This document shows, piece after piece, positions 6,752 through 59,397 of a stretch of DNA of 64,000 nt. The notes beneath the pieces were generated by a model that saw only the letters and a program-made list of their open reading frames with translations, had not been told where the DNA came from and did not search any database. Both the position numbers and the translations under genes were made by a program. The stretch lies in assembly GCA_036005125.1 (NCBI GenBank), contig DASYQV010000170.1, forward strand, positions 2,407 through 66,406. Direction: 5' to 3'. Positions within the stretch are counted from its first letter, which is position 1. Every line of letters begins with the position of its first letter. Source of the stretch: Vicinamibacterales bacterium (GTDB taxonomy: Bacteria; Acidobacteriota; Vicinamibacteria; Vicinamibacterales; UBA2999).

Positions 6752-6753
6752 TC

Positions 6754-15235: not shown

Positions 15236-15253
15236 TGAGCTCCGTTAAGCAAA

Positions 15254-20461: not shown

Positions 20462-20615
20462 ATCATTTCCGCCTTCGGGCTCGGAGCATGAGGACATGAT
20501 GCTCTTCGCCACGTCTCGAGCGCGCCGCCTTGCATCTTCCCGGCGCATCTTGAGATGCGGCCCAGAGGAGTCACGACTCCCGGAGTAGAGTCAGTAGAAT
20601 CAGCAGAATCACGTC

Positions 20616-22400: not shown

Positions 22401-22469
22401 TTCTTGATTGGATTCATGATTCCAATCGCAAATCATGAATCATGAATCACGAATCATGAATCATGAATC
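22399..22469. repeat. Tandem-heptamer palindrome, GATTYGT type, locus H1
   Basis: Left arm GATTCTTGATTGGATTCATGATTCC. Right arm AATCGCAAATCATGAATCATGAATCACGAATCATGAATCATGAATCG. Confidence 0.9.
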
Positions 22470-23237: not shown

Positions 23238-23364
23238 CCTGATTCACGGGCGATTCTTGATTCTTGATTCTTGATTCATGATTGACCCGCCAACCAAATC
23301 AGGAATCAGGAATCAGGAATCAGGAATCAGGAATCAGGAATCGGGAATCAGGAATCAGGAATCA
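23238..23364. repeat. Tandem-heptamer palindrome, GATTCTT / AATCAGG type, locus H2
   Basis: (GATTCTT)x3-GATTCATGATT, a 14-nt spacer, then (AATCAGG)x10 with one AATCGGG variant. Lies between convergent genes. The minus-gene TGA (23362-23364) is inside the last unit. Confidence 0.95.
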
Positions 23365-24135: not shown

Positions 24136-24139
24136 CGCC

Positions 24140-24226
24140 TGATTCGTGATTTGTGATTCATGACTCGTGATTGGCGCTCGGTACGAGGCTCGGGATCCGG
24201 AATCGCGAACCGCGAATCACGAATCG
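24140..24226. repeat. Tandem-heptamer palindrome, GATTYGT type, locus H3
   Basis: Left arm TGATTCGTGATTTGTGATTCATGACTCGTGATTGG. Right arm CCGGAATCGCGAACCGCGAATCACGAATCG. Confidence 0.9.
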
Positions 24227-28264: not shown

Positions 28265-28269
28265 CTTAT

Positions 28270-28365
28270 CAATTTGCGATTTGCGATTTGTGATCTGTGA
28301 TTTGATTGCTGATTTCTGATTTGAATCGCTGGCATCAATCACAAACCGCAAATCACCAATCAAAA
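28270..28365. repeat. Tandem-heptamer palindrome, GATTYGT type, locus H4
   Basis: Left arm is ~8 units (ATTTGCG ATTTGCG ATTTGTG ATCTGTG ATTTGAT TGCTGAT TTCTGAT TTGAATC). Right arm is ~4 units (ATCAATC ACAAACC GCAAATC ACCAATC). Confidence 0.9.
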
Positions 28366-28370
28366 ATGTT

Positions 28371-29007: not shown

Positions 29008-29090
29008 CAAGGTCAAAGGTCAAAAGTCAAAGGGCAAAGGTAAGGTCAAGACCTGACTTTTGACCTTTGCCCCTTTGACCTTTGACCTTG
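29008..29090. repeat. Tandem-heptamer palindrome, GGTCAAA type, locus R3
   Basis: CAAGGTCAAAGGTCAAAAGTCAAAGGGCAAAGGTAAGGTCAAG / ACCTGACTTTTGACCTTTGCCCCTTTGACCTTTGACCTTG. Fills the rplS-rnhB spacer. Confidence 0.95.
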
Positions 29091-31322: not shown

Positions 31323-31437
31323 CGTAGGCCGCATCTTTAGATGCGGCGCAGTGCCATACGGCTTTTTCGTAGGCCGCATCTTTAGATGCGGCCCAGCAAA
31401 ATGTACTCGGGTCTAAAAACCCGGCCTACGTACGTCC
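31323..31437. repeat. Two tandem copies of the CGTAGGCCGCATCTTTAGATGCGGC hairpin element; second copy bounded by inverted CGTAGGCCG / CGGCCTACG
   Basis: Copies begin at 31323 and 31368. The unit 31368-31433 ends with CGGCCTACGTAC, the reverse complement of GTACGTAGGCCG seen at 55572 and 63181. Confidence 0.85.
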
Positions 31438-32867: not shown

Positions 32868-33010
32868 GATGGGAAACCGTTGGGCAGACTTGCCCCCTTC
32901 TGAAGCATGCGCCGGGTCGGTATTGACGACCCGCAACCGGCCTACACTGCCGCTAAGCCTAACGGACGCAAACTCTTATGCTAAGTCAGATGGGGTGATC
33001 CCGGCAACAT

Positions 33011-33172
33011 ATCAGGAATCAGGAATCAGGAATCAGGAATCAGGAATCAGGAATCAGGAATCAGGAGTCAGGAGTCAGGTCAGGAGTTAAAGGAAGGACG
33101 CATGCCTTTCGGGAAGAGCGGATTTTGCCCGGCTCGCTCTGACTCCTAGCTCCTACCTCCTAACTCCTGAGT
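33011..33172. repeat. Tandem-heptamer palindrome, AATCAGG/AGGAGTC type, locus H5
   Basis: (ATCAGGA)x7 grades into AGTCAGG units up to 33088. After a 51-nt spacer the right arm is TGACTCCTAGCTCCTACCTCCTAACTCCTGAGTTC, abutting the ribBA stop. Confidence 0.9.
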
Positions 33173-37350: not shown

Positions 37351-37383
37351 GTTGCGATCTTAATTCACGGGGAGATCGAGGAC

Positions 37384-37435
37384 ATTCATGATTCATGATT
37401 CTTGATTTCAAGTCGAAACACCCAATCACGAATCC
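37384..37435. repeat. Tandem-heptamer palindrome, GATTYGT type, locus H6 (short)
   Basis: CATTCATGATTCATGATTCTTGATTTC / CAATCACGAATCC. Confidence 0.75.
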
Positions 37436-37453
37436 TCTCCACGGAGCTCGACG

Positions 37454-38449
37454 TTACGTCTCCGCGCGCTGCGGACGCAGCATCAGGTCGTACACGGCGG
37501 TTCGCGGGTCTTTTCTGCCGGCCAGAAGTTCCGCGACCTGACCGGCAATCGGCAGCTCCACGCCGTGGCGCGCGCCAAGGGCCAGCGCCGCATCGGTGGT
37601 GCGGACGCCTTCGGCCACCATCTTCATGCCGGCCAGCACCTCCTTCAACGTGCGGCCGCGTGCGAGCTCGAGGCCGACGTGGCGGTTCCGGCTCAACGTT
37701 CCCGTACACGTCAGCACCAGGTCGCCGAGTCCCGTCAGCCCCGAGAGCGTTTCGCGCCGGGCGCCGGCCGCGCACGCGAGGCGGGTGATCTCGGCAAGGC
37801 CCCGCGTGATGAGAGCAGCCAGGGCGTTGCGTCCCAGACCGAGGCCCTCGACCATGCCGGCGGCAATCGCGATGATGTTCTTGAGCGCACCGCCAATCTC
37901 GACACCAATCACGTCGTCGCTGCCGTAGAGGCGGAAGTACGCCGCACGGAAATCGCACTGGACGCGCTCGACGGTCGCAGCGTCTCTGGAGGCCACCGAC
38001 ACGGCCGTGGGCAGCTCGCGCGCGAACTCGGCCGCGAAGCTCGGGCCCGAGAGTACCGCGACGTTGTATCCGGGGCCTGCCTCCTGCTCGATAATCTCCG
38101 AGACCCGGAACAAGGTGTCCTGCTCGAGCCCCTTTGCTGTGCTGACGATCGTCACGCCCGCAGGAAGATACGCGGCCGCGCGGCGAATGACGTCGCGTGT
38201 GCCGTGCGAGGGAACGGCCGACACCACGAGCTCGGTCTCGCGAAGCGCGTCCTCGAAGCTCGACGTGACGAGGAGCTGGGGTGGGAAGGTGACGTCGGGC
38301 AGATAAATGGCATTGGCGCGACGGTTGACCATGTCGGCGACGAGCGCCGGATCGCGCGCCCAGAGCCGTACGTGATGTCCCAGCCGCGTGAGATGCACGG
38401 CCAGCGCGGTGCCCCAACTCCCCGATCCGAGAACCGCCACGCTCTTCAT
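37454..38449 (-). CDS. gpsA: NAD(P)H-dependent glycerol-3-phosphate dehydrogenase
   Basis: MKSVAVLGSGSWGTALA start. The track ORF N-terminal extension is repeat-encoded (HKSQITNPKSQ). Confidence 0.9.
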   Translation of the reverse strand: MKSVAVLGSGSWGTALAVHLTRLGHHVRLWARDPALVADMVNRRANAIYLPDVTFPPQLLVTSSFEDALRETELVVSAVPSHGTRDVIRRAAAYLPAGVTIVSTAKGLEQDTLFRVSEIIEQEAGPGYNVAVLSGPSFAAEFARELPTAVSVASRDAATVERVQCDFRAAYFRLYGSDDVIGVEIGGALKNIIAIAAGMVEGLGLGRNALAALITRGLAEITRLACAAGARRETLSGLTGLGDLVLTCTGTLSRNRHVGLELARGRTLKEVLAGMKMVAEGVRTTDAALALGARHGVELPIAGQVAELLAGRKDPRTAVYDLMLRPQRAET

Positions 38450-38574
38450 TTGTGATTTGGGATTTGTGATTTGTGATTTGTGACTGTGGGTTTCGACGCG
38501 CAGCGCGCCCGGGCGCAATGACCATGCTTTAAATCGCAAATCACAAATCGCAAATATCGCAAATCGCAAATCAT
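38450..38574. repeat. Tandem-heptamer palindrome, GATTTGT type, locus H7
   Basis: Left arm TTGTGATTTGGGATTTGTGATTTGTGATTTGTGACTGTGG. GC-rich 36-nt spacer. Right arm AAATCGCAAATCACAAATCGCAAATATCGCAAATCGCAAATCATGA. It abuts the gpsA ATG and contains the plsY TGA. Confidence 0.95.
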
Positions 38575-39161
38575 GAGAGTCGTTGGCCAATGCGGCGCTC
38601 GGTGCCGGAACGCAGACGCGAGATGTTTCCGCGATGACCGTAGATCACGAGGAGCGCCGTGAGCAGTGCGCCGACTATGACGGCGGGTGGCGCTCCACTG
38701 GCGGCCGTTGCGATCGCCAGTGTTATCACACCGGCCAGCGAGCCCACGGAGACGTACCGCGTCACCGAAACGCCGATGATGAAAACGCCGCTGGCAATGG
38801 CGAGCGCGGCGGGCGCAAGCACCGCGAACATGCCGGCGGAGGTGGCCACACCCTTTCCTCCGCGCCAGCCAAGCCAGATCGGGTAAATGTGTCCGACGAT
38901 CGCCGCCACGCCGGCCGCAACCGGCGGCGTGGGGCCTGTCGCGATGCGCTGTGCGACCAGTACCGCCACCGCACCCTTCACGCCGTCGAGACACATCGCC
39001 GCCGCCGCCATCCGCATGCCGCTCGTGCGAAGCACGTTGCTGGCGCCGACGTTGCCGCTCCCGACGGTGCGCAAATCGATCCCGCGCCGCCGCGAGAGCA
39101 GAAATGCGAACGGCACGGAACCGACGAGATAGCCGAGCAGAACGGCGAGAAGTATGACCAT
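38571..39161 (-). CDS. plsY: Glycerol-3-phosphate acyltransferase PlsY
   Basis: LLGYLVGSVPFAFLL...DLRTVGSGNVGASNVLR...GGKGVATS. GAGGAGG Shine-Dalgarno before the ATG at 39161. Confidence 0.9.
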   Translation of the reverse strand: MVILLAVLLGYLVGSVPFAFLLSRRRGIDLRTVGSGNVGASNVLRTSGMRMAAAAMCLDGVKGAVAVLVAQRIATGPTPPVAAGVAAIVGHIYPIWLGWRGGKGVATSAGMFAVLAPAALAIASGVFIIGVSVTRYVSVGSLAGVITLAIATAASGAPPAVIVGALLTALLVIYGHRGNISRLRSGTERRIGQRLS

Positions 39162-39172
39162 GCCTCCTCGAC

Positions 39173-39288
39173 GGCTTCGGGCTTCGGACTCCGGGCTTCG
39201 GTCCCGATTCTCGTCCACTCCGCCGAACGTCCCGGGCCATGCAGGAGAATCAGGACCGTCGCCTGGCGCCAGAAGCCCGGAGCCTGCC
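39173..39288. repeat. Weak GC-rich heptamer tract (GGCTTCG type) in the thpR-plsY spacer
   Basis: GGCTTCG GGCTTCG GACTCCG GGCTTCG GTCCCGA on the left. A partial complementary CCAGAAGCCCGGAGCC on the right. Confidence 0.4.
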
Positions 39289-41033: not shown

Positions 41034-42332
41034 CTACGACGTCGCGATCATCCGTCGCACCATGTCGAGCGCGGCCTGCGATGCCTGGAACTTGACCTGC
41101 TCACGCTCGCCCATGAATCGCACCGTACGGACACGGCTCGCCTCCGGCGTGATGACCGCGACGCAGACCGTCCCGACGGGCTTCTCCGGCGTCCCTCCAC
41201 CAGGGCCCGCGATTCCGGTCACGCCGATGCCGACCTCGAGTCGAGCGCTCACCCGGATGCCCTCCGCCATGGCCACGGCCACCGGTTCGCTCACGGCGCC
41301 GTGTTCGGCGATGAGCGCGGCTGGAACGCCGAGCATCTCGGTTTTGGCGTCGTTGCTGTAGGAGACGACAGACCGATCCACGTACCGGGAGCTGCCGGCC
41401 ACATCGGTCAGGCGCGAGGTAATCAGGCCGCCAGTGCACGATTCGGCGACGCCAATGCGCCAACCGCGCGCGAGCAGGAGGTCGCCGACGACTTCTTCGA
41501 GCGCCCGGCCGTCCGTGCTGTACGCGTCACGGCCGAGGACCGCTCGCACGTGTTCTGCTGCACGATCGAGCGCCGATTCCGCCGCCTCCGGCGTCTCGGC
41601 GCGCGCCGACAGGTGCAGCTCGATCTGTCCGAAGGCGGCCAGGATGGTCGCCGAGATTGGGACCGCCGCCGCGGCCCAGGCCGCATAGAGCGGCTGCACG
41701 GCTTCTTCCGTGTGGGATTCGGTCCGTCCCGTAATCCGGATGATGCGGCGGCGCAGCGTCGTCATCGCGGCGCGGGACTGCAACCGGCTCTCGACCAGAC
41801 CGCGGAGCATCGGCTTGAGCTCGCGCGGAGGCCCCGGCAGCAGCAGCACGACACGGTCTCCGTGCTCGATCCAGAGTCCCGGCGCGGTGCCGTTGGGGTT
41901 GTCGATCGGGTCGGCGCCTTCAGGCACCATGGCCTGCCGGCGGTTGATCTCCGGCATCTGCCATCCGCGCGCTGCAAATCGCTGGCGAAGGCGCTCGGTG
42001 ATCTCCTGCCGCTCGTGGAGCTTTCGCTGAAGGACGTCGGCGACCACCTCGCGCGTCACGTCGTCATCGGTGGGCCCGAGGCCGCCGCACAGCACGATCA
42101 GCCCGGCGCGTTCGAGCGCGCTCCGGACGAGATGCGCCAGCTCGGCCCGATCGTCGCCGACGACCCCCTTGAATACGACCTCGATCCCGAGGGTGTTCAA
42201 CTGCTCCGTGATGTACAGCGAGTTGGTGTCGATGCGCAGCGGCGTCAGAAGCTCGCTGCCCACGGCGATGATCGCCGCCCGCTCGAACGGGGCCGGTCGC
42301 TGCTGCGGCATGGCGGCGTTCATGTCAGCCAC
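41034..42332 (-). CDS. cinA: Competence/damage-inducible protein CinA (MoCF-binding + PncC nicotinamide-nucleotide amidase domains)
   Basis: [10 protein letters not shown].....DTNS.YI...L..LGIEV, LGPTDDD, and a C-terminal ESCTGGL motif. Confidence 0.9.
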
Positions 42333-42784
42333 CCGGGCATCGTCAGCAACAATGTCCGCATGACCAGATTGCCGTAAATGGCCGCCATGCCGTCGTCGGC
42401 CATCACGCCAAGGCCACCGGGCAAGCGTTCGAACCGTGCCGACGGAAAGGGTTTGATGACATCGAGGATCCGGAACACGACGAACCCGACGAACGCTCCA
42501 CGCACCGTGACCGGCAGCAGGAACAGCGTCACCAGCATGCCCACGACCTCGTCGAGCACGATCGGCCCCGGGTCGATGCCGCCGAAGTGATGCTCGGCCA
42601 CCGTCCCGCTCCAGATCCCGAGCGCGAACAGCGCGAGGATCACCACCACCTCGACAACCGTCGACCCCGTCGTCCGCACCGCAAAGAAGACGGCCAGGCC
42701 GGCGGCCGAGCCGAACGTGCCGGGTGCAACGGGTACGTACCCCACGTAGCCGAACGTGGCGATGAACAGCGCGAGACGGCGCAT
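42320..42784 (-). CDS. pgpA: Phosphatidylglycerophosphatase A
   Basis: MRRLALFIATFGYVGYVPVAPGTFGS...DEVVGM...FRILDVIKP. The track ORF N-terminal extension is repeat-encoded. Confidence 0.85.
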   Translation of the reverse strand: MRRLALFIATFGYVGYVPVAPGTFGSAAGLAVFFAVRTTGSTVVEVVVILALFALGIWSGTVAEHHFGGIDPGPIVLDEVVGMLVTLFLLPVTVRGAFVGFVVFRILDVIKPFPSARFERLPGGLGVMADDGMAAIYGNLVMRTLLLTMPGWLT

Positions 42785-42790
42785 CGGTCC

Positions 42791-42927
42791 CGATTCGTGA
42801 TTCGTGATCCGTGATTCGTGATTTGTGGTTCGTGAGTTTGCGATTCGCGATTTGTGGTTCGCGGCGAATCGCAAATCATTCCCACCAATCAGAATCACAA
42901 ACCAGTCACGAATCACAAATCACGAAT
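42791..42927. repeat. Tandem-heptamer palindrome, GATTCGT type, locus H8
   Basis: Left arm is ~10 units (GATTCGT GATTCGT GATCCGT GATTCGT GATTTGT GGTTCGT ...) to 42862. The right arm (GCGAATC GCAAATC ... ACGAATC ACAAATC ACGAATG) follows with no spacer. It contains the RDD-gene TGA and ends 6 nt from the pgpA ATG. Confidence 0.95.
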
Positions 42928-43942
42928 GCTTTTCGATGACGCGCGTACGGGTCAGGCGGTCGTGCACGGCGCGGCGGTCGGATCCGACGAGCGCGGGAAG
43001 GAACCCGAGGCCGAGCGACACGACCGACAGGGCGCCGGCAAGCGTGCGCTGAATCGCAATGCTTCCATCGAGCGAGTCGCGACCGTCGGCAATGACCCGG
43101 ATCCCGACAGCCATCTTGCCGATCGTCTGACCGCCCACGGCCGTAAACGCACTGAAGTACGAGAGCTTGAGCAGCAACAGGAACGTCAGCAGCGGCACCG
43201 GCGGAACGACTGCCCACTCGCTCATCGTCAGACCCGCGATGCGCAACGTGAAGTACACGATCGCCAGGTCGATGGCCAGGAGGAGCGCGTGATCAATCGC
43301 AAGCGCCGCGAGACGGCGACCGGCGATCCGGTCGACGCGCGTGCTGACACGCGGCACGGTCACGGGCTCGTGACGCGCAATCGTCGCGTCAGGAGGTGCA
43401 GCCGCCTCCTCGTGGAAGTCGAGCTCCATCTCGGGACGCGCAAGCTTCGATGCGGCACGTGGGCCGGGGTCCCCAACGCGCGTTTTTCCAGTCGCGGTCG
43501 CTCGCGACCGCGACCAGCCAGTGCTGGTTTCGCGGTCCGCCTGCGGCGGACCGCCGGGGTGGACGCGCGGTGAGTCGGGCGTCCGACGCACGGCCAGCGG
43601 TGGACGAGGCGCGCTCGGCAGCGCAATCAGCGGCGCGTCATCCGGACCGTAGGGACCGAATAACGGCAGTGCGACATCCGGTTTGCTCGGGGGCGGTGCG
43701 GCGGACGACGCGACCGGTGGTGGCGTCAGACGATCGCCGGCCGGCGACCGCGTTGCGGCGCGCCATCGATCCAGTTGGTCCAGCCAGACATCTGTCGAAG
43801 GAGCCTCGCCCTGATCCGGGTGAATTGTCACATCCGGGACTGCCGGCGCATCCTCACGCGCCATGAGCGAGAAATCGTATCCGCAGTTTTTGCACCGGTC
43901 GCCCGTCTCGAAGCCAAGATAACCGCACTTCGAGCACTTCAT
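42920..43942 (-). CDS. RDD-family membrane protein with N-terminal zinc-ribbon; repeat module D inserted in-frame in the linker
   Basis: MKCSKCGYLGFETGDRCKNCGY zinc ribbon, a Pro-rich linker, and a C-terminal RDD domain (AGRRLAALAIDHALL...VHDRLTRTRV). ATGA overlap with the upstream gene. Confidence 0.8.
   Translation of the reverse strand: MKCSKCGYLGFETGDRCKNCGYDFSLMAREDAPAVPDVTIHPDQGEAPSTDVWLDQLDRWRAATRSPAGDRLTPPPVASSAAPPPSKPDVALPLFGPYGPDDAPLIALPSAPRPPLAVRRTPDSPRVHPGGPPQADRETSTGWSRSRATATGKTRVGDPGPRAASKLARPEMELDFHEEAAAPPDATIARHEPVTVPRVSTRVDRIAGRRLAALAIDHALLLAIDLAIVYFTLRIAGLTMSEWAVVPPVPLLTFLLLLKLSYFSAFTAVGGQTIGKMAVGIRVIADGRDSLDGSIAIQRTLAGALSVVSLGLGFLPALVGSDRRAVHDRLTRTRVIEKHS
43466..43563. repeat. 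Repeat module D (98 bp), solitary copy inside the RDD-protein coding sequence
   Basis: GGGGTCCCCAACGCGCG...GTCGCGGTCGC-TC-GCGACCGCGAC...GCGGTCCGCC-TGC-GGCGGACCGC...CCGGGGTGGA. About 90% identical to 7654-7752. Confidence 0.9.
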
Positions 43943-44787: not shown

Positions 44788-44837
44788 CAGCCGCTCGCGA
44801 TTATCGCACGATCCGCCACGAAGCACACGACGATTGG

Positions 44838-44990
44838 CCACGAAGGACACAGCGCGGCCAACGTCGCAACCAAACATGACACGCGTTGCCTGGTTGGCCG
44901 CGCTGTGTCCCAAGGACGCTGTCACGCGACTGACACCGTGGCTGATCTTCGTGGCTGATCTTCGTGGCCTTCGTGGCGTTCGTTACGAGC
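44838..44990. repeat. REP-like element (CACAGCGCGGCCA family), copy c, with CTTCGTGG tandem tail
   Basis: CCACGAAGGACACAGCGCGGCCAACG-loop(CAACCAAAC)-TTGGCCGCGCTGTG...CGCTGTCACGC, then CTTCGTGGCTGAT x2 and CTTCGTGGC x2. Confidence 0.85.
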
Positions 44991-45908: not shown

Positions 45909-45996
45909 GCGACACGTGATGAGGCTTGTACCTCATGTGTTGTCTTACCACACGCGCGAACACCCGAAACATCGCCGATTCGTGAACGTCCGTGAC

Positions 45997-46041
45997 GGGG
46001 TCAGAACGGGGTCAGACCGAGGTCAGACCGGGGTCAGACCC
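45997..46041. repeat. Four tandem 11-mers GGGGTCAGACC between convergent genes
   Basis: GGGGTCAGAAC GGGGTCAGACC GAGGTCAGACC GGGGTCAGACC. Each unit contains the near-palindrome GGTCAGACC. Confidence 0.9.
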
Positions 46042-46110
46042 TGATCATGGATCGACTCAAGGCATTGACACGGGTCGACTCAATGAACGGGCAGCTTGGA
46101 AGGTGTACCG

Positions 46111-47493
46111 TCAAACGGCTTCCTCATCGTCCACCCTGCGCGACGGGACGATGCCGAAGCCCCGCATCTTCCGGTACAGGTTGCTGCGCTCGATCCCGAG
46201 CACTTCCGCGGTTCGCGAGATATTGCCCTGCTGCGCGGCGAGCGCGCGCAGGATGTAGTCGCGCTCGAACCGGTCCCGGGCATCGTGAAGCGGGGCCATC
46301 GTCGACGGGCGGACCGCGTCGGACGCAGGCGGCATGCTCTGATCGAGGAAATGCAGGTCGCGCGACGTGATCCGTTCGCCGGGGACCATGATCATCAGCC
46401 GCTCGACCAGATTCCGCAGCTCGCGGACGTTGCCCGGCCACGGGTATTGCTGAAGGGCGATCACCGCGTCCGAGTCGAACACCTTCGGGCGACGGCCGTA
46501 CTCACGCGCCAGCCCGACCATGAAGTGGTCGGCGAGCAGCGCGATGTCCTCCTGGCGGTCGCGCAGCGGCGGCACGAAGATCGGCACCACGTTGAGGCGG
46601 AAGTAGAGATCCTCGCGGAACCGTCCGGCCCGGATCTCCGTCGGCAGGTCCTTGTTGGTGGCCGCCAGCACGCGGGCGTCGATCCGGATGCGCGCGGAGC
46701 CGCCGACAGCTTCCATCACCTGCTCTTGAAGCACGCGCAGCACCTTGGCTTGCGTCTTGAGGCTCATGTCGCCGATCTCGTCGAGAAAAATCGTCCCGCC
46801 GTGGGCGCCTTCGAACTTGCCCCGGCGATCCGCGACGGCGCCCGTGAAGGCGCCCCGGACGTGGCCGAACAGCTCGCTTTCGATCAGCTCCTCGGGAATC
46901 GCGGCGCAGTTCACCTCGACGAACGGACCGGCCCGTCGACGGCTGAGCGCGTGGATGTTTCTCGCAACGAGCTCCTTACCGGTGCCGTTCTCGCCGAAGA
47001 TGAGCACGCGCCCGTTGGTGGGCGCAGCCATGGCCACCTGTTCGCGGAGCTGCTGTATGACGTAGCTGTCGCCGACGAGCGTGTGCTGCACGTCGACGCG
47101 CGCACGCAGGGCTTGATTCTCCGCCTCGAGCCGCCGCTGCCGGAGGGCGTTCCGCACGACCAGCACCGTCTTGTCGAGCGAGAGCGGCTTCTCGACGAAG
47201 TCGAACGCACCCATCTTGATGGCACGCACTGCCGACTCGATGTTTCCGTGCCCGGAGATGATGACGACCTGAGCCTCGATCTGCCGCTCGCGCATGCGGG
47301 CCAGCGTCGCCAGGCCGTCCATGCCCGGCAGCCAGATGTCGAGCACGACCACGTCGTAGGTCTGCCTCGTCAACCGATCGAGGCAGGACTCGCCGCTCTC
47401 GACCGCGTCCACCTCATAACCTTCGTCGCGCAGCACGCCGCCGAGCGCGCTGCGGACACCGGGCTCGTCGTCAACGATTAGGATCGATGGCAT
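46111..47493 (-). CDS. ntrX: Sigma-54-dependent response regulator (NtrC family, NtrX-like)
   Basis: Receiver ILIVDDEPGVR...DIWLPGMDG, AAA+ GENGTGKE, GAFTGA loop (VRGAFTGA), and a C-terminal Fis-type HTH. Confidence 0.9.
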   Translation of the reverse strand: MPSILIVDDEPGVRSALGGVLRDEGYEVDAVESGESCLDRLTRQTYDVVVLDIWLPGMDGLATLARMRERQIEAQVVIISGHGNIESAVRAIKMGAFDFVEKPLSLDKTVLVVRNALRQRRLEAENQALRARVDVQHTLVGDSYVIQQLREQVAMAAPTNGRVLIFGENGTGKELVARNIHALSRRRAGPFVEVNCAAIPEELIESELFGHVRGAFTGAVADRRGKFEGAHGGTIFLDEIGDMSLKTQAKVLRVLQEQVMEAVGGSARIRIDARVLAATNKDLPTEIRAGRFREDLYFRLNVVPIFVPPLRDRQEDIALLADHFMVGLAREYGRRPKVFDSDAVIALQQYPWPGNVRELRNLVERLMIMVPGERITSRDLHFLDQSMPPASDAVRPSTMAPLHDARDRFERDYILRALAAQQGNISRTAEVLGIERSNLYRKMRGFGIVPSRRVDDEEAV

Positions 47494-47507: not shown

Positions 47508-47609
47508 CCGACTCGGGACTCGAGGCTCGGGGCCAGGGGCCTGATTCTCCTGCGCCTCGACGCAGCACAGGAGCAACATGACGCGAGCCCCGAGCGCCAA
47601 GCCCCGAGC
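47508..47609. repeat. GC-rich tandem-heptamer palindrome (CTCGGGG type), locus G1
   Basis: GCCCGACTCGGGACTCGAGGCTCGGGGCC ... GCGAGCCCCGAGCGCCAAGCCCCGAGCC. Fills the ntrY-ntrX spacer. Confidence 0.8.
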
Positions 47610-49895
47610 CTACGCCGGCAATTCAATCGCGAATCGCGTTCCGCGCGGTGTGTTGTCCGATACGTCAATGCTGCCGCCGTGCTCCGCCACGATGCGACGC
47701 ACGATCGCCAGGCCGAGACCGCTTCCACGCCGTTTCGTCGAATAGTACGGGAGGAACAGCTTCTCGCGCTCGGCCGGAGGGATCCCCGGGCCGTCGTCGG
47801 CCACGACGACGCGGACGAGATTGTTGACGCCGTCGTGATGCGCCTCGACATCGATCACGCCGCGCTGGTCCGTCGCTTCGATCGCGTTGTCGACGAGATT
47901 GATGATCACCCGCCGAATCTGCTCCGAATCGACGGAGACCGTCGGCAGCGGCTCCTCGAAGTGCCGCCGGATCTCGACCGCGGTGAAGATGCCGTTGTAG
48001 AGCGCCAGCGCTTCGGTGAGCAGCGCCAGCAGGTCCGTGGGAACGGCCCGGGGCACCGGCATCCGGGCGAACTGAGAGAACTCGTCCACCAGGCCCTTGA
48101 GCGATTCGACCTCGCCCACGATTGTCGAGGTGCACTCGTCGACCAGCTGCCGGGTCTGCTCCGCCGCGCCCCCGAAGTGCCGTCGGAGGCGCTCGGCGCA
48201 GAGCTGAATCGGCGTGAGCGGATTCTTGATCTCGTGCGCCAGCCGCCGGGCGACCTCGCGCCACGCGGCAACTTTCTGCGCCCGGATGAGCGGCGTCACG
48301 TCGTCGAAGACCACGACCATGCCTTCCGAGACGCCATCCTCGCGCTGGAGCGGCGTGGTCATCACGGCGAGGTGCATCTCACGGCCGTCGCGGGCGAGCG
48401 CCAGCTCCTGCGGACGGATCTCGCCGCGGCTGCGCGAGGCCTCGTCGAGCAGGATGGCAAGCGGCTTCAGCTCGGCACGGTTGAGCACGGTCGTCATCGG
48501 CAGACCCGAGGTGCTGGCATCGATACCGAGCATCCGGCCCGCGGCGCTGTTGACAGTGCCAATGCGGCCGGCAGCGTCGACCGACAGCACACCGGTCGCA
48601 ATCCGATCGAGAATCGTCTCCACGTACCGCCGCCGGCTCTCGACGTCGTGATGCTTGCGCTCCAGATCGACCGCCGAGCGCTCCAACCGGCGGCGGCTGG
48701 CGGCCAGCTCGCCCGCCATGCTGTTGAAGGCATCGATGAGCGATCCGAACTCGTCTGTCGTCTCGGGGACGACGCGGTGGTCGAGGTGCCCTGCACCGAT
48801 CTCTCTGGCAGCCGTGGAGAGCATCTGCACCGGTCGCGTAATGCGCTTGGCGAGGTACAAACCCATCCACGTAGCGCTCACGAGAATCATCAGCGTGAGC
48901 GTCAGGAAGAACGACAAGTACACGCCCGCCAGCGGCTGCTTGAGGACCCGCATCTGCTGATAGTCCTCGTACGCGTTCGTCATCTGCCGGGCGCGCGCGG
49001 CGAACTGACCGCTCAACGAATCGCTGGCAACAACGACGCCGCGCACCGGACTCTTCGGAGACGATCGAATTGGAACGGCGGCACGAACCAGCTCGGCGCC
49101 CCCCGCGGCGCGCTCGATGACCCACGACTCCCCTGTCCCTGCCGCAATACGCTCGGCGAGCCGGTCGGCGGACGCTCTGGTATAGCCGATCGAAATCGAC
49201 GGCGAGACCACGTCCACGACGGGCATGACCGCAGGAAGCGAGGTGCGACCGGGTGTCACGCGATACACCTCGACGAGACGCGCACGTTCCTGCAGCACTG
49301 AGGGCGTGACGAGATCGCGTACGGCCTGCAGATTTCCCGAGCCCAGATCGACGGCCGCCAGCGCGTCGGCCAGCTGCCGCGCCTGCGCGGAAACCAGATG
49401 CTGCCGCTCCTGGTAATAATCGCCGGCGATCGCGTTGGCCGTGCTCAGCACTTCGTCCATCGGCGCGTTGAACCATCGGTCCACGCTGGTTCGGATCAGC
49501 TCGCTCCCGACGATCAGGACGAGCACGGCAGGGATGAGCGTCATCCCCAGCAGCACCGCCACGAGCTTGGCGCGGAAACGCGCGAACGGCAGCGCGCGCC
49601 GGCGCTCGACAATCAGCTTGACGATATTGCGCGCCAGCACGAACGCGAGCACGACGAGCATCGTGAGATTCGTGATCGAGAGCGCGTAGAGCACGACCTC
49701 CGTGAGGAAGTCGGGGGCCAGTTTCGCCGAGCGATTGGCGAGCGTCAGCAGGCCGGCGAGCGCCCCGACCAGGACGAGGATGCCCACGAGCAACAGCCGC
49801 GTGTTGTCCTTGAACGGTCGTCTCCCCGAGGGCACAGACCTCCGCCGCCAGGGCGGAGCCGCTGGACGGGGCACGCGGCGCGCGACAGTGGACAT
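47610..49895 (-). CDS. ntrY: Sensor histidine kinase NtrY-like (TM-HAMP-PAS-HisKA-HATPase)
   Basis: N-terminal multi-TM region, HAMP, PAS, H-box LAHEIKNPLTPI, N/G boxes DNAIEA and DDGPGI, GSGLGLAIV. Confidence 0.85.
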   Translation of the reverse strand: MSTVARRVPRPAAPPWRRRSVPSGRRPFKDNTRLLLVGILVLVGALAGLLTLANRSAKLAPDFLTEVVLYALSITNLTMLVVLAFVLARNIVKLIVERRRALPFARFRAKLVAVLLGMTLIPAVLVLIVGSELIRTSVDRWFNAPMDEVLSTANAIAGDYYQERQHLVSAQARQLADALAAVDLGSGNLQAVRDLVTPSVLQERARLVEVYRVTPGRTSLPAVMPVVDVVSPSISIGYTRASADRLAERIAAGTGESWVIERAAGGAELVRAAVPIRSSPKSPVRGVVVASDSLSGQFAARARQMTNAYEDYQQMRVLKQPLAGVYLSFFLTLTLMILVSATWMGLYLAKRITRPVQMLSTAAREIGAGHLDHRVVPETTDEFGSLIDAFNSMAGELAASRRRLERSAVDLERKHHDVESRRRYVETILDRIATGVLSVDAAGRIGTVNSAAGRMLGIDASTSGLPMTTVLNRAELKPLAILLDEASRSRGEIRPQELALARDGREMHLAVMTTPLQREDGVSEGMVVVFDDVTPLIRAQKVAAWREVARRLAHEIKNPLTPIQLCAERLRRHFGGAAEQTRQLVDECTSTIVGEVESLKGLVDEFSQFARMPVPRAVPTDLLALLTEALALYNGIFTAVEIRRHFEEPLPTVSVDSEQIRRVIINLVDNAIEATDQRGVIDVEAHHDGVNNLVRVVVADDGPGIPPAEREKLFLPYYSTKRRGSGLGLAIVRRIVAEHGGSIDVSDNTPRGTRFAIELPA

Positions 49896-49908
49896 AGTAC
49901 GACCGTCT

Positions 49909-50006
49909 GGCTCAGGGCTTAAGGCTCAGGGCTCAAGGCCTGATCCCCTGCACGCTCGCGAGGAGTACGAGAATCGGGCCGTGAGCCCTAAGCCCTGAGC
50001 CTGAGA
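49909..50006. repeat. GC-rich tandem-heptamer palindrome (GGCTCAG type), locus G2
   Basis: GGCTCAG GGCTTAA GGCTCAG GGCTCAA GGCC ... GTGAGCC CTAAGCC CTGAGCC TGAG. Fills the nrdR-ntrY spacer. Confidence 0.85.
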
Positions 50007-51720: not shown

Positions 51721-51821
51721 GATTCGCGATTGGCGATTCATGATTCGTGATTTGACCTTGGGGCGACACCAACGTCACGAACCGGAATCACGAATCATGA
51801 GTCACGAATCATGAATCACGA
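51721..51821. repeat. Tandem-heptamer palindrome, GATTCGT type, locus H9
   Basis: Left arm GATTCGCGATTGGCGATTCATGATTCGTGATTTG. 20-nt spacer. Right arm TCACGAACCGGAATCACGAATCATGAGTCACGAATCATGAATCACGA. The next unit supplies the purC ATG. Confidence 0.95.
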
Positions 51822-52724
51822 ATGACCTTGTCCGCCGCTCCCCTGATCGAAACCCGACTCCACGGATTGGCGCCCGATCGCGTGGGGAAGGTGCGCGACA
51901 TCTACGAGCTCGAAGACGCGCTCCTGCTGGTGGCTACGGATCGCATCTCCGCGTTCGACTACGTGCTCGGGTCAGGCATTCCCGACAAGGGGAAGGTGCT
52001 GACGCAGCTCTCCACGTTCTGGTTCGAACAGACGCAGCACATTGTGCGCAATCACCTGATCACCGCCAACGTCCGCGACTATCCCGCGTCGCTTCAGGCC
52101 CACGCGGCGACGCTCGCCGGACGGTCGATGATCGTCCGCCGCACCGAACCCATCCCCGTCGAGTGCGTCGCGCGCGGATATCTCTCCGGCTCCGGCTGGA
52201 AGGAATACGTCACAACCGGCGCGGTCTGCGGCATCCGGCTGCCCGCCGGCCTGCGTGAGTCCGACCGTCTGCCTGAGCCGATCTTCACGCCGGCGACGAA
52301 AGCCACCAGCGGACACGATCTCAACGTCAGCGAGGACGAAGCAGGACGCCTCGTCGGACGCGAGCCCGTCGCGCGCCTCAAGACGCTGACGCTCCAACTC
52401 TATCGGTTCGGCGCGGCGCACGCCGAGGCGCATGGGATCATTCTCGCGGACACGAAGTTCGAGTTCGGCCTGCTGCCTTCCGGCGAACTGATTCTCATCG
52501 ACGAAGTGATGACGCCGGATTCCTCGCGCTACTGGCCGCAGGACTCGTATCGACCCGGCGGACCGCAACCGAGCTTCGACAAACAGTACGTGCGCGACTA
52601 CCTCGAGGCGATCCGCTGGAACAAGCAGCCACCGGTGCCCACGCTTCCGGACGAGGTGGTTTGGCGCACGCGGGAGAAGTATCTGGAAGCGCATCGCCGG
52701 TTGACCGGCCGCGAGCTCGACTGA
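51822..52724 (+). CDS. purC: Phosphoribosylaminoimidazole-succinocarboxamide synthase
   Basis: GKVRDIYE....LLLVATDRISAFD.....IPDKG..L...S.FWF. SAICAR synthetase long form. Confidence 0.95.
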   Translation: MTLSAAPLIETRLHGLAPDRVGKVRDIYELEDALLLVATDRISAFDYVLGSGIPDKGKVLTQLSTFWFEQTQHIVRNHLITANVRDYPASLQAHAATLAGRSMIVRRTEPIPVECVARGYLSGSGWKEYVTTGAVCGIRLPAGLRESDRLPEPIFTPATKATSGHDLNVSEDEAGRLVGREPVARLKTLTLQLYRFGAAHAEAHGIILADTKFEFGLLPSGELILIDEVMTPDSSRYWPQDSYRPGGPQPSFDKQYVRDYLEAIRWNKQPPVPTLPDEVVWRTREKYLEAHRRLTGRELD

Positions 52725-53134: not shown

Positions 53135-55107
<1,973 letters not shown>

Positions 55108-55109
<2 letters not shown>

Positions 55110-55170
55110 GTCAAAGGTCAAAGGTCAAAGGTCAAAAGGCGTCAAAGGTCAAAGGTCAAAGGTCCGTCAA
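55108..55170. repeat. GGTCAAA tandem heptamers, single arm, locus R4
   Basis: AGGTCAAAGGTCAAAGGTCAAAGGTCAAAAGGCGTCAAAGGTCAAAGGTCAAAGGTCC begins inside the groEL TAG stop. No complementary arm. Confidence 0.9.
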
Positions 55171-55210
55171 GGGCCGGCTCTCTCAGAGGGCCGGCCCTCG
55201 TGCGTTTTCA
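55170..55210 (+). terminator. Probable groESL terminator hairpin
   Basis: AGGGCCGGC(TCTCTCAGAGG)GCCGGCCCT has a 9-bp GC stem extendable by CTCT/AGAG, followed by CGTGCGTTTTC. Confidence 0.65.
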
Positions 55211-55571
55211 AGGCTGCAATTCGATTACGAGCCTGAGGTCGGCCCGGGAGCAGCCGCGCGCCGCACCGTGCAACGAACGGACACCATGGCAGGGCATGGC
55301 GCTTGCCCTTGGTGGCCCCGTGCCCCGGTTCGCCACCCCATTCGTCAAAGTGTTTGTCGTCCTGATCCCGCTGACGGTCGGTGCCGGGCGCATGCGGGCG
55401 CACGACTTTCCCACGAGTCCATCCGAGCTCAATCGCTGCCTCGCCGCTATCCGCGCCGTGTGCGCGCGCCGCATCCGGTCGCCACATCACTGCGACGAGC
55501 AGCCGGTGTCAGCCGCCGGCACCCAGCCGCTGCAGCCCCAGCGCATTCAGTTCCAATTGAATCTCAGCTAA

Positions 55572-55801
55572 GTACGTAGGCCGCATCTTTAGATGCGGCC
55601 CAGCGAATGTGCCCGGGTCTAGCCAGCCAAGGGGCTCTGCCCTTGATATCCCAGCAGAGCCGGGGTCCCCACCGCGCACGCTTGCGCGGTGGGGTGGAGA
55701 GCCCTCGCCTGGTTAGACCCAGTGTCTTTTTGGCGCGCTCCGCGCGCCTCGCCCGTCATGCGGTCGCACAACGAGTACAAAATTCGCGTGTGTGGCCCAC
55801 G
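55572..55801. repeat. Modular MITE-like composite element, copy 5 (inverted orientation; hairpin-family head, C with short D-like insert, B, degenerate A)
   Basis: GTACGTAGGCCGCATCTTTAGATGCGGCC head. CCAGCCAAGGGGCTCTGCC...CAGAGCC[GGGGTCCCCACCGCGCACGCTTGCGCGGTGGGGTGGAGAG]CCCTCGCCTGG. GGCGCGCTCCGCGCGCC. CCCGTCATGCGGTC. The reverse complement aligns with copy 3. Confidence 0.85.
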
Positions 55802-56289: not shown

Positions 56290-59200
56290 ATGCAGGCTGC
56301 ACCAGACAACCGCGCAACGCGCAAGCAAGTCTCCAGGAAGCATTCGCGCCCGCGCAAAGAACGGGTGCGATCGCCGGAGCACAAGCAGCCGCCACCGCGC
56401 ACCGAGCGCCGCGCGGACACTCACCCTGACCCGTCCGCCCCGGAGGTGGCTCCGCAGCGGGAACGAGATTTCGGTATTGTTGGCGTGGGAGCCTCGGCCG
56501 GCGGTCTCGAGGCGTTTCAAGAACTGCTGTCGCACCTTCCGAACGATCTCCCGCTGGCGTTCGTCCTCATTCCTCATCTCGATCCGCACCACGCGAGCGG
56601 GCTCGTCGAGATCCTGGGCCGGGTGAGTCCACTCAAAGTGGTGGAGGCGGCCGACGGCATGGCGGCGCAGGTCGGACAGGTGGCGGTCATCCCGCCAAAT
56701 ACCACCCTCACGATCATTGATGGCGTCCTGCGCGTCACGCAACGACAGTCAGTTCATCGCCAGTCCCGGCCGATCGATCTCTTTCTGCGCTCCTTGGCCG
56801 AGGATGCTGGCAGCCGGGCGATCGGGGTGGTGTTGTCGGGCGGCCTGTCGGACGGGGCCCTCGGCGTGGCGGCGATCAAGGCGGCCGGAGGCGTGACCTT
56901 CGCCCAAGACCCGGACTCCGCCAAACACGACAGTATGCCGCGCAGCGCTATCTCCTCCGGCGCTATCGACTTCGTCCTGCCGCCCGCAGGGATCGCGCGA
57001 GAGCTGGCGCGAATCGGCGTCCATCCATACGTCGGTCGGCAACGCGGCGATCGCCAGCGCACGGAGGCGCCCGACGAGGAACGGGCGCTACAGGGCATCG
57101 TTCGGATGCTGCGCGGTGACGGCGGCATCGACTTCGCCCAGTACCGACAAACGACGTTTCGGCGGCGCATCGCGCGCCGGATGCTCATCCACCGCCTCGC
57201 CACGCTCGATGCGTACCAACGTCAGCTCAAGAAGAATCCGGCCGAGTTGCGGGCGCTCAGCCAGGACCTGCTCATCGACGTCACCCGTTTCTTCCGTGAC
57301 CCCGGGGCTTTTGAGGCGTTGCAGCGAGACGTCTTGCCGAGCCTGGTCAAGCGAGCGGTGGACGCGGATCAGCCGATCCGCTGTTGGGCGCCGGGCTGCG
57401 CCACCGGCGAGGAGACGTACTCCCTCGCGATCGCGCTCTTGGAAGTGCGGGGCGAGACACGCACGCAAGCGCCGATTTACCTCTTCGGCAGCGACGCCAG
57501 CGAGACTGCGATCCAGCGGGCGCGCCGCGGCGTGTATCCGAAAAATATCGAGGCCGACGTCTCGGAAGAACGGCTCCGGCGCTTCTTCGTCAGGACGGAT
57601 GATCAGTATCAAGTGCGGAAGAGCGTGCGTGATCTGTGTGTGTTCGCCCGGCACGACGTGCTGGCGGACCCGCCGTTCTCCAACGTAGACCTGGTCGCGT
57701 GCCGAAACCTCCTCATCTATCTCGAGCCCCCGGCTCAGAAACGCGTGATGCGAACGTTCCACTACGCGCTCAAGAATGAGGGGATTCTGCTGCTTGGCGG
57801 CTCGGAGACCGTGGGGGCGTTTGCCGATCTCTTCGGGGTCGTCGACAAGAAGCACAGGATCTACGCGAAGAAGGCGACGTCGGTGCGGCTCGAGCTGGGC
57901 GCCGTGGCTGGGCCCCGCGGCGCCGAACCGCTGCAGCCGACAGCCCCGGAGTCGCAACGGCCGGACGCGGGCCGGGGGGCCAGTGACGCCGTGTATCTCC
58001 AGCGGGAAGTCGATCGCATTCTCCTGGGCCGCTACGCGCCCGCCGCGGTGTTAGTGAATGAGGCCATGGAGGTGTTGCAGTTTCGCGGTCACACGAGTCC
58101 CTTTCTCGAGCCGGCGCCCGGGCATGCCACTTTCAATGTCCTGCGCATGGCGCGAGAAGGGCTGCTGATGCCCTTGCGTACGACGATCGCTGCCGTCCGG
58201 AAAGGAAAGACCGTTGTTCGGCACGACGGGCTGCGCGTCAAGCAGAATGGAACATTTCTCCCGGTCAACCTCGAGGTCCGTCCAGTCCGCAATGCGTCTG
58301 GTGGGCGTAACTACCTCGTTCTCTTCGAGGAGGCACACCGTCACGCGCGCGAGGGGCCGAAACAGGCTGGGCGATCCAAGCCGCCGAACGTGCGGGCGTC
58401 AGCGGCGGAGAACGAAACCCTCCGACACGAGCTCGCCTCGACAAAGGAATTCCTGCAGTCGCTCGTGGAAGAGCGGGAGGCGGCCAACGAGGAGCTCCGC
58501 TCGGCGAACGAAGAGATCCTCTCCAGCAACGAAGAGCTGCAGTCCACGAACGAGGAGCTGCAGACCGCGAAGGAGGAGCTCCAATCGACCAACGAGGAGC
58601 TCAACACCGTCAACGAAGAGCTGCAGCACCGCAACACGGAGCTGACCCAGCTCAACGACGACCTGACGAATGTGCTGGCGAGCGTCAGTCTCCCGATGGT
58701 CATCGCGGATAGTGCCGGCGCGGTTCGACGGTTCACTGCCCGCGCTGGGACGCTGTTCAACCTCACGGCCGCCGACGTCGGCCGGCCGCTCCGAACCGTC
58801 CGCCCGAACCTCGGCGACATCAGCGACCTACACGAGCTGTGCATGAAGGTGATCGACACCGCGATACCCACCGGTCGGGAGGCACAGGATCGCGACGGCA
58901 ACTGGTGGAATGTGACCGTACGGCCGTACAAGACCACCGAGAATCAGATCGTCGGCGCCGTGATCGTTTTGACGGATGTCACGATCCTGAAGGGAAAACT
59001 CGACGACATCACCATTGCCCGCGATTACGCCGAAGGCATCGTCGACACCGTTCGCAGCCCGCTGGTGGTGCTCAATGCAGACTTGTCCGTCATGTCGGCC
59101 AACCCCGCCTTCTACAAGGCCTTCAAGGTCGATCGGGAGGAGATCGTCGGGGCGTTTATCTATGACTTGGGGAACCGGCAGTGGAACATCCCTGCTCTGC

Positions 59201-59397
59201 GGCAGGCGCTCACTGCGGTCGGCGAGCAGGATGCGACGTTGACAGACTTTGAGGTGACGCACGAATTCAGAACGCTCGGCCGTCGGACAGTGGCCCTCAA
59301 CGCACGACAGATTCATTGGAAGGACCAACCGACCGGGACTATCCTTCTCAGTTTTGAAGACATCACCGAACGCCGAGAGTCCGAGCCACATGCGTGA
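56290..59397 (+). CDS. CheB methylesterase - CheR methyltransferase fusion protein with coiled coil and two PAS domains, no kinase/output domain
   Basis: CheB: IVGVGASAGGLEAFQELL...IPHLDPHH. CheR: FRDPGAFEAL...RCWAPGCATGEETYSLAI...VACRNLLIYL. Heptad coiled coil NEELRSANEEILSSNEELQSTNEELQTAKEELQSTNEELNTVNEELQ. Then PAS-like repeats to the stop. Confidence 0.85.
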   Translation: MQAAPDNRATRKQVSRKHSRPRKERVRSPEHKQPPPRTERRADTHPDPSAPEVAPQRERDFGIVGVGASAGGLEAFQELLSHLPNDLPLAFVLIPHLDPHHASGLVEILGRVSPLKVVEAADGMAAQVGQVAVIPPNTTLTIIDGVLRVTQRQSVHRQSRPIDLFLRSLAEDAGSRAIGVVLSGGLSDGALGVAAIKAAGGVTFAQDPDSAKHDSMPRSAISSGAIDFVLPPAGIARELARIGVHPYVGRQRGDRQRTEAPDEERALQGIVRMLRGDGGIDFAQYRQTTFRRRIARRMLIHRLATLDAYQRQLKKNPAELRALSQDLLIDVTRFFRDPGAFEALQRDVLPSLVKRAVDADQPIRCWAPGCATGEETYSLAIALLEVRGETRTQAPIYLFGSDASETAIQRARRGVYPKNIEADVSEERLRRFFVRTDDQYQVRKSVRDLCVFARHDVLADPPFSNVDLVACRNLLIYLEPPAQKRVMRTFHYALKNEGILLLGGSETVGAFADLFGVVDKKHRIYAKKATSVRLELGAVAGPRGAEPLQPTAPESQRPDAGRGASDAVYLQREVDRILLGRYAPAAVLVNEAMEVLQFRGHTSPFLEPAPGHATFNVLRMAREGLLMPLRTTIAAVRKGKTVVRHDGLRVKQNGTFLPVNLEVRPVRNASGGRNYLVLFEEAHRHAREGPKQAGRSKPPNVRASAAENETLRHELASTKEFLQSLVEEREAANEELRSANEEILSSNEELQSTNEELQTAKEELQSTNEELNTVNEELQHRNTELTQLNDDLTNVLASVSLPMVIADSAGAVRRFTARAGTLFNLTAADVGRPLRTVRPNLGDISDLHELCMKVIDTAIPTGREAQDRDGNWWNVTVRPYKTTENQIVGAVIVLTDVTILKGKLDDITIARDYAEGIVDTVRSPLVVLNADLSVMSANPAFYKAFKVDREEIVGAFIYDLGNRQWNIPALRQALTAVGEQDATLTDFEVTHEFRTLGRRTVALNARQIHWKDQPTGTILLSFEDITERRESEPHA

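Follow-up and report, generated by a model that had tools for sequence, protein, structure and literature searches.

What is the run of short repeats that fills an entire intergenic spacer of an acidobacterium, and what does its inverted layout mean? The question is raised by positions 42788-42927 of a 64,000-nt stretch of DNA from a Vicinamibacterales bacterium (GCA_036005125.1, contig DASYQV010000170.1, positions 2,407-66,406, forward strand; the whole stretch is hereafter called the window). Here about ten GATTYGT units (42791-42861) are followed directly by about eight ACRAATC units. The + strand starts with GATTCGT GATTCGT GATCCGT GATTCGT GATTTGT GGTTCGT; the centre reads GATTCGC GATTTGT GGTTCGC, then GCGAATC GCAAATC, and the array ends with ACGAATC ACAAATC ACGAAT. 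It fills the 135-nt spacer between an RDD-family gene (42920-43942, -) and pgpA (42320-42784, -), and it is one of many elements in this genome that we describe as palindromic microsatellites, in which 7-nt units repeated in tandem are followed by tandem copies of their reverse complement, with the G-rich arm first. The array has overwritten the end of the RDD gene: on the sense (-) strand the stop codon TGA lies inside the first repeat unit and the C-terminus reads ...IEKHS* in the window vs ...GLPSA* in array-free relatives.

Arrays were called by Tandem Repeats Finder and by our own period scan. The scan gave 26 period-7 arrays in the window, vs 0.3 in composition-preserving shuffles, and 0-1 arrays at periods 8-12; at period 7, 177 scan positions had at least 24 of 28 matches, compared with 0-10 at the other periods in the 3-12 range. 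Tandem Repeats Finder placed period-7 arrays at every coordinate given in a first-pass annotation of this DNA, as well as at many more. That annotation had listed eight spacers with GATTYGT-type arrays and their inverse, and all eight look as it described them. The GATT unit family is thus real, but it is not the only one, because the same layout is built from five other unit pairs in the window: AGGTCAA/TTGACCT (6504-6752, 14975-15237 and 29008-29089), ATCAGGA/CTCCTRA (33009-33170), GACTCGG/CGAGCCC (47510-47610), GGCTYAR/YTRAGCC (49906-50004) and GGCTTCG/CGGAGCC (39171-39287). In total, period-7 arrays of several unit families occupy at least 16 spacers, and the 64 kb hold at least 15 paired loci plus two solitary arrays (55106-55166 and 45996-46040). 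Array GC content is 32-53%, compared with ~65% for the window. All but one weak case sit in gaps between genes supported by their third-position GC content, and most lie between co-directional genes, as had been proposed. The loops and outer flanks are unique at each locus and we found no loop or flank sequence common to loci, which agrees with the earlier statement that they did not arise as copies of a single transposed element. The arms do differ in length, for example about eight vs four units at 28269-28367.

To place these arrays in a wider context, we used 80 loci from relatives (1.47 Mb, or ~1.5 Mb together with the window), a set that takes in long-read and chromosome-level genomes. 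Many relatives carry arrays followed by their inverse, with units that vary by genome (GGGATTC, GGTCTTT, GAACTCA, GATTGACG, GGGTAATC and others). A strict scan of the 80 loci found 58 arrays at period 7, 30 at period 8 and 18 at period 9, and one to four arrays each at periods 5, 6 and 10. The period of seven and the GATT unit, which the first-pass annotation took as conserved features, are therefore not general, as relatives use periods 8 and 9 and many other units. The intergenic position does hold: 181 of the 196 arrays in the window and relatives are intergenic. Among short spacers, 17.5% of the co-directional, 19% of the convergent and 10% of the divergent ones carry an array, a weak deficit for the divergent class. 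Directly 3' of the gpsA stop codon, an array is found in at least 15 of the closer relatives, with differing units and even periods; the gpsA-adjacent position thus recurs without sequence conservation.

What the loci do have in common, besides the palindromic layout, is the order of their arms. The G-rich arm comes first in 41 of the 46 paired arrays of the window and relatives (p = 4e-8), in every pair of the window, and in 33 vs 5 pairs of the relatives alone. The earlier claim that the GATT-type arm is always 5' on either strand is correct for all eight cases (8/8), and it is a special case of this G-rich-first rule. Such an order is not automatic, because the inverse order would be equally palindromic. 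Ordinary perfect stems of at least 9 bp in array-free spacers do not share it: their 5' arm has more G than C in 23 cases vs more C than G in 16, and arrays and ordinary stems differ in this respect (Fisher p = 0.002). The corresponding counts for arrays are 33 vs 4 in co-directional, 3 vs 1 in convergent and 4 vs 0 in divergent spacers. The chirality is thus strand-symmetric and independent of the orientation of the flanking genes, and this symmetry rules out transcription or replication direction as its source. Solitary arrays split 43:20 in favour of a G-rich sense strand, which does not differ from the array-free spacer background of 198:122 (p = 0.39). The G-rich-first rule is new here.

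Two simple explanations for unit choice and arm order were tried and rejected. A GANTC methylation site as the common core occurs in only 19 of the 158 unit types found in the window and relatives. Three-frame stop codons as the reason for periods that are not multiples of three, or for the chirality, fail as well, with a stop in only about one third of the G-rich arms; for AGGTCAA and ATCAGGA, the arm with the stop codons is the one opposite the G-rich arm.

The arrays change quickly. The exact PgpA protein is encoded on contigs of ten independent assemblies (JGI, ENA and Logan), all from one population, that are 98.8-99.9% identical to the window. In all ten, the RDD-pgpA spacer has the same 135-nt length; it is identical in seven and carries one or two point changes in three. 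L081 and L082 are the only ones that span the other spacers compared. In L081 (99.9% identical), the left arm at 33011-33079 is shorter by five units (35 nt), and L082 has one additional unit (+7 nt) at 47510. A third strain, L083, has one additional unit of 11 nt in the period-11 array at 45996. Relatives at graded distances were obtained from a metagenome scan with PgpA. At 95% amino-acid identity (L091 and L092), the orthologous RDD-pgpA palindrome retains its tip, and its 3' arm has about six units vs about ten in the window. At ~80% (L093, L094 and L099), the same spacer holds GATTGGT/ACCAATC palindromes. In L095-L097 (80-81%) and in all relatives at or below 77%, it measures 15-40 nt and has no array. 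As close strains differ by whole units and the 95% relatives by unit number, the arrays gain and lose whole units through slipped-strand mispairing, and the copy-number dynamics that had been predicted are borne out by these strains and by the other unit numbers of the relatives. Arrays are also gained or lost between related species. They are lineage-specific, long-lived, fast-changing and dispensable.

Arms at the RDD-pgpA spacer co-vary at unit position 5, which is C/G in the window lineage (GATTCGT/ACGAATC) and G/C in L093 and L099 (GATTGGT/ACCAATC). Each arm is homogenised on its own, yet the two arms co-vary between genomes. Such co-variation calls for either selection for pairing or hairpin-templated correction; either way, some hairpin formation must take place in the cell.

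At 13 of 14 loci the sequence folds better than its dinucleotide shuffles, with z between -2.0 and -12.7, the exception being 37380-37440 (z = -0.5); the long hairpins with slippable register that had been proposed are thus supported. For the RDD-pgpA array, the sense (-) RNA folds with -73.1 kcal/mol (z = -9.3), and none of 200 shuffles folds as well; as DNA, the same locus folds with -40.6 kcal/mol (z = -5.7). In six of 11 co-directional spacers, the predicted sense fold pairs the downstream start codon with bases adjoining the upstream stop codon, the RDD-pgpA pairing being GCAU with AUGC.

The paired architecture itself has been described before, contrary to what the first-pass annotation implied. 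Rehm et al. 2015 (PLoS One, PMC4692102) reported 70-75 convergent GGGAATC heptamer array pairs per genome in Xanthomonas campestris and X. axonopodis, which are transcribed and were interpreted through G-quadruplexes. Several features are common: 7-nt units in tandem, with 2-26 copies, at a genomic GC content of ~65%; a strongly intergenic position near the stop codon, mostly between aligned open reading frames and seldom between divergent ones; and a position that is kept as length varies between related genomes. Their 'convergent' pairs have the G-rich arm first, as in the window, which likewise shows head-to-tail 7-nt arrays in convergent order, in intergenic position, with position kept and length varying. 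Relatives L032, L052 and L060 even carry GGGATTC/GAATCCC pairs. There are also clear differences. Xanthomonas is a gammaproteobacterium and the window organism an acidobacterium; the window has several unit families, with periods 8 and 9 in addition among the relatives; and the Xanthomonas unit GGGNATC has a G-tract, whereas GGG is present in none of the window units (GATTYGT, AGGTCAA, ATCAGGA and others) and in 47 of the 158 unit types of window and relatives. Since the window units are without G-tracts, they cannot form G-quadruplexes. The cases therefore share the palindromic layout and the chirality, not the potential to form G-quadruplexes.

A second precedent comes from Geobacter metallireducens, in which Aklujkar et al. 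2009 (PMC2700814) described paired sites on opposite strands, with three to five tandem 7-, 8- or 9-mers (units MTYCTGA, GTTGCTYN and TCTCCGTS[Y]) at variable distance. These were named 'global regulator binding sites', and binding of IHF or HU was guessed without a test. The paired-site architecture is the same, several families occur per genome and some sites lie within an operon (proBA), but the arms have fewer units and the unit sequences are different; chirality and strain-level dynamics went unreported. The inverted heptamer-pair architecture is thus already known from Xanthomonas and Geobacter, and what is new is the phylum, the units and the presence of several families and periods. 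As the first-pass annotation had stated for such repeats, no function or generating mechanism is described in either PMC4692102 or PMC2700814. The intergenic tandem heptamers of cyanobacteria (short tandemly repeated repetitive sequences, STRR; Mazel 1990, as cited in PMC4692102) and the TAACTGA repeats (MacGregor 2015, PMC4679880; one inverted set among 170) are likewise lineage-specific and without assigned function. They differ in being overwhelmingly direct arrays of other units, many in fixed orientation upstream of start codons, and identity with STRR was rejected on account of the different units and of the paired, inverted layout that most window arrays have. Our literature search found no paper on tandem repeats in Vicinamibacter or Vicinamibacteria.

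Among other known elements, repetitive extragenic palindromic (REP) sequences and bacterial interspersed mosaic elements (BIME) of enterobacteria and pseudomonads come closest in position: hairpins inside operons or between convergent genes that are rare in promoter spacers, have a species-specific consensus and, for REPs, are thought to stabilise the upstream mRNA. By analogy, the arrays would most plausibly work like REP/BIME elements. They are not members of that class, since a REP is one imperfect palindrome of 20-40 nt with a GTAG/CGTC head, spread by a RAYT transposase, and has no internal tandem structure and no slipping by units, whereas each arm in the window is a tandem array whose unit number varies and that has neither a conserved head nor a conserved flank. 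Rfam covariance models did not match any array; a single tRNA was the only match at gathering score in the window. Intrinsic (Rho-independent) terminators were rejected as an identity because the stems are AT-rich, 20-70 bp long and without a T-run, and canonical promoters are not enriched at arrays.

The relatives offer a further clue. In at least 11 of them, a PF05635 gene (23S rRNA intervening-sequence protein, E = 1.9e-10) lies between inverted arrays, (AAGTGGAAAA)n ... (TTTTCCACTT)n. The gene encodes a four-helix bundle of ~125-150 amino acids (L004:2762-3331; also L003, L019, L025, L033, L117, L129, L130, L153, L165 and L167). Its cassette has the G-rich arm first and conserved inner flanks, and the two arms agree in period: 7 in L003, 8 in L004 and L153, a mix of 8 and 9 in L025 and L033. 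The flanking arrays are conserved across genomes whose proteins are 60-80% identical. L018 has the cassette arrays and no PF05635 gene. In the window, the orthologous spacer (45909-46110) is without the gene, and tblastn found no remnant of it in the window. In 23S rRNA intervening sequences, terminal inverted repeats form a long stem around the gene of a four-helix-bundle protein, as in the cassette of the relatives; the difference is that this cassette lies between protein-coding genes and not in rRNA. PF05635-type genes in rRNA sit within stems that are cut by RNase III. By analogy, the cassette is our best hint that paired arrays may serve as RNA stems. It also keeps open a possible origin of the arrays as cassette remnants.

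Taken together, we favour the reading that operon transcripts contain the arrays as long stem-loops, which would play a part similar to that of REP elements or of the stems of rRNA intervening sequences, a proposal that we regard as evenly poised between right and wrong. Most arrays fill co-directional spacers all the way from one gene's stop codon to the start codon of the next, which would place them within polycistronic mRNAs; once transcribed, they could fold into long imperfect stem-loops. Such structures may hold back 3' exonucleases, be processed by RNase III, or do both. The stem could also, in some spacers, sequester the downstream start codon, and the layout of a fold that reaches from stop to start would give translational coupling. 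Unit number would then set the stability of the stem. Whether the arrays act at the RNA or the DNA level is undecided.

Several results weigh against this proposal. We infer every RNA-level step of it, and slippage in situ alone does not explain why unit families are re-used within one genome. L095-L097 are equally related and have no array, so arrays are dispensable. The sense RNA folds better than its antisense in 69 of 90 array spacers, and the same is true of 283 of 420 array-free ones (283:137), so this bias is not array-specific. At 38446-38575, it is the sense strand that carries the mismatches (-44 vs -58 kcal/mol). The pairing of stop and start flanks was rejected as evidence for translational coupling because it was not significant in a flank-swap test (matched -5.2, swapped -4.2 kcal/mol, permutation p = 0.07). 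Terminator-like sites are not enriched (7 found, 10.5 expected), and no U-tracts follow the stems; one of the seven touches an array, a 5-bp stem ending at 22399 whose T-rich tail is the first repeat unit. Downstream of groEL, the classical terminator, a GC-rich hairpin with a T-run at 55172-55212, is separate from the array and lies 3' of it.

In the main rival account, the arrays would be by-products, either neutral or selfish, that do nothing for the cell: polymerase slippage would favour units of about 7 nt, hairpin-templated (quasi-palindrome) correction would keep the arms alike, and tolerant spacers would inflate. We consider this possible, although the less probable account. It fits the variable presence of arrays among equally related genomes, the unit-number changes between strains, the arms that drift apart by one position per unit, the sense-strand folding bias shared with array-free spacers and the overwritten C-terminal RDD codons; heptamers are, according to papers citing Mrazek, also the commonest long simple-sequence repeats. 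The 41:5 chirality, absent from ordinary hairpins, is harder to accommodate, as it needs a directional cause. Nor would neutral growth predict that arrays recur at the same spacer with other units and periods, that they are conserved around the PF05635 gene across genomes with 60-80% identical proteins, or that they are scarcer in divergent spacers, a weak difference. Mobile or once-mobile elements, either insertions like foldback transposons or miniature inverted-repeat transposable elements (MITE), or leftover stems of intervening-sequence-like cassettes, spread by an unidentified transposase or recombination, would account for the fact that a genome employs only a few unit families over many of its spacers, for filled vs empty spacers and for the PF05635 gene between inverted arrays together with the geneless arrays of L018; insertion sequence elements also lie at a fixed distance from the Geobacter sites (PMC2700814). 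Drosophila foldback (FB) transposons resemble the window loci in their long inverted arms of short tandem sub-repeats, their unequal, variable arms, their variable loop and, sometimes, a gene inside. They differ in being eukaryotic, with kilobase arms, demonstrable mobility and target-site duplications. In the window we found no target-site duplications or conserved termini, and the filled and empty RDD-pgpA spacers show no duplication. With loops and outer flanks unique at every locus, unit numbers and variants that differ between loci, and no PF05635 remnant in the window, identity with a MITE or foldback transposon was rejected and we judge mobility improbable.

An action on DNA, either as cruciforms that affect supercoiling or replication or through a nucleoid-associated or regulatory protein that binds to sites arrayed head to head, appears very improbable to us; IHF/HU binding is the guess made for Geobacter. 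In its favour are the strand-symmetric chirality that ignores gene orientation, the DNA fold of the RDD-pgpA locus and the GATT/AATC core in 36 of the 158 unit types vs ~5% expected. However, at least five unrelated unit families in 64 kb and dozens in the relatives, with periods of 7, 8 and 9, make a single sequence-specific protein unlikely; a 7-bp spacing is out of step with the helical repeat of DNA, and the analysis turned up no candidate protein. That the arrays are an artefact of assembly or sequencing can be practically discounted. We found nothing in favour of this beyond the known risk that short tandem repeats pose to short-read assembly, and the earlier call for a check against raw or independent data is answered by the ten independent assemblies, which carry the arrays and keep the 135-nt length of the RDD-pgpA spacer, and by the same architecture in long-read and chromosome-level relatives.

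Heptamers, the commonest long bacterial microsatellites, have no accepted function. Their paired inverted form is now seen in a third distant phylum, with units that are incapable of forming G-quadruplexes, which removes the sole mechanistic idea so far proposed (for Xanthomonas). About one sixth of spacers carry an array in Vicinamibacterales, an order of abundant soil bacteria. If the arrays are indeed operon-internal stem-loops of strain-variable length, relative gene expression would be under a widespread and heritable control that can be adjusted quickly. One could go further and propose that G-rich-first palindromic tandem arrays are a general, sequence-independent bacterial device, a self-expanding intercistronic RNA stem tuned by slippage, with the chirality arising from shielding against Rho or from a dedicated generating process. 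This extension is speculative and we think it unlikely to hold. For Rho, the C-rich arm would pair as soon as it is transcribed and leave no free C-rich RNA, so that long untranslated spacers would stay invisible to Rho and, in some of them, the downstream start might be coupled to termination at the upstream stop. Alternatively, both 3' ends at a break might be extended with G-rich units and then joined, a layout that would be the same as that of a head-to-head telomere fusion.

The remaining loci show how much the theme varies. By its GpsA, the window organism belongs to the order Vicinamibacterales (Acidobacteriota, subdivision 6); the best GpsA match is 77% identical. Pfam confirmed the gene names given before (plsY, gpsA, ftsY, RDD, pgpA, rnhB, TPR and rodZ) and also names rplS, ffh, ribBA, cinA, an NtrY-like kinase with its sigma-54 regulator, purC and groEL. 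Around plsY and gpsA, a (GTGATTT)5 ... (AAATCGC)6 palindrome fills the plsY-gpsA spacer (38446-38574), with arms that were homogenised separately (GTG vs GCG; GTGATTT vs GCGATTT), resulting in T.G wobble pairs on the + strand only. A (GGCTTCG)n ... (CGGAGCC) palindrome fills the LigT-plsY spacer (39171-39287; minimum free energy of the sense RNA -84.8 kcal/mol). The gpsA-ftsY spacer holds a short pair, three GATTCAT units and AATCAC/GAATC (37383-37435), which is the weakest locus (z = -0.5). About eight GATTTGY and then four AATCRCM units lie between rnhB and the TPR gene (28269-28367), an (AGGTCAA)6-(TTGACCT)5 palindrome between rplS and rnhB (29008-29089; z = -8.3), and a palindrome of five GATTYRT and four GAATCRC units between rodZ and the next gene (24138-24226). 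A convergent spacer carries (GATTCTT)4-5, then (AGGAATC)10 (23250-23366); the arms, GATTCTT vs GATTCCT, differ at one position per unit, which gives U.G wobble on the + strand. Four GATTNNT units, then (AATCATG)6, are found in a co-directional (+) spacer (22399-22469).

Other unit families sit at (ATCAGGA)10 ... (CTCCTRA)4, which adjoins the ribBA stop codon (33009-33170), and at two further palindromes, (GRCTCGR)4 ... (CGAGCSC)4, which fills the spacer between the histidine kinase and response regulator genes (47510-47610), and (GGCTYAR)4 ... (YTRAGCC)3, which is 3' of the nrdR stop codon (49906-50004). In a divergent spacer, a palindrome of five GATTSRY and five GAATCAYG units (51721-51826) includes the start codon of purC: the ATG at 51822 belongs to the last unit (ACGAATG), so the stem would cover the purC translation start. 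In a co-directional (+) spacer, (AGGTCAA)8 ... (TTGACCY)16 forms a palindrome whose loop is 75 nt long (6504-6752; z = -7.2), and a compound palindrome has outer (AGGKCAA)n/(TTGMCCT)n arms that enclose an inner AGGTMY/RKACCT palindrome (14975-15237; -147 to -159 kcal/mol, z = -12.7). Among solitary arrays, (AGGTCAA)8 on the + strand begins at the groEL stop codon (55106-55166), and the period-11 array (CGGGGTCAGAC)4 (45996-46040) adjoins a 72-nt segment (45914-45985) that is absent from strains L082 and L083.

The window also contains repeats of other kinds. A GC-rich 22-nt palindrome, GGCCGCATCT(TT/AA)AGATGCGGCC, has five copies (6755-6776, 20541-20562, 31327-31348, 31372-31393 and 55579-55600) vs 0.01 expected; it is a dispersed REP-like hairpin family distinct from the heptamer arrays. 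One divergent spacer (44808-44983) holds an inverted pair, CGCCACGAAG.../...CTTCGTGGCG, whose sub-repeats are 9-22 nt long; it is similar in architecture but has other periods. A GTTC-rich direct repeat tract with periods of 12, 19 and 25 is found in another divergent spacer (17292-17383) and has no inverse partner. Inside a gene of ~970 amino acids (56485-59397, +), a 21-nt (7-codon) in-frame tandem repeat (58484-58644) is of the coding heptad type and unrelated to the spacer arrays.

Finally, the arrays are a hazard for annotation. The C-rich arms have no stop codons, so open reading frames and gene calls run through them and N-termini are extended by gene callers; arrays can also overwrite gene ends. 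In the window, the open reading frame 42320-42916 (pgpA frame 42320-42784) runs through an array arm. The response regulator (window 46111-47493) is called with 498 amino acids in L082 (L082:5250-6746) and with 460 in L083. In L084, 55 nt inside cinA (window 41170-41224) are missing and the gene is called with 407 amino acids vs 429, which may be a real deletion or a misassembly.

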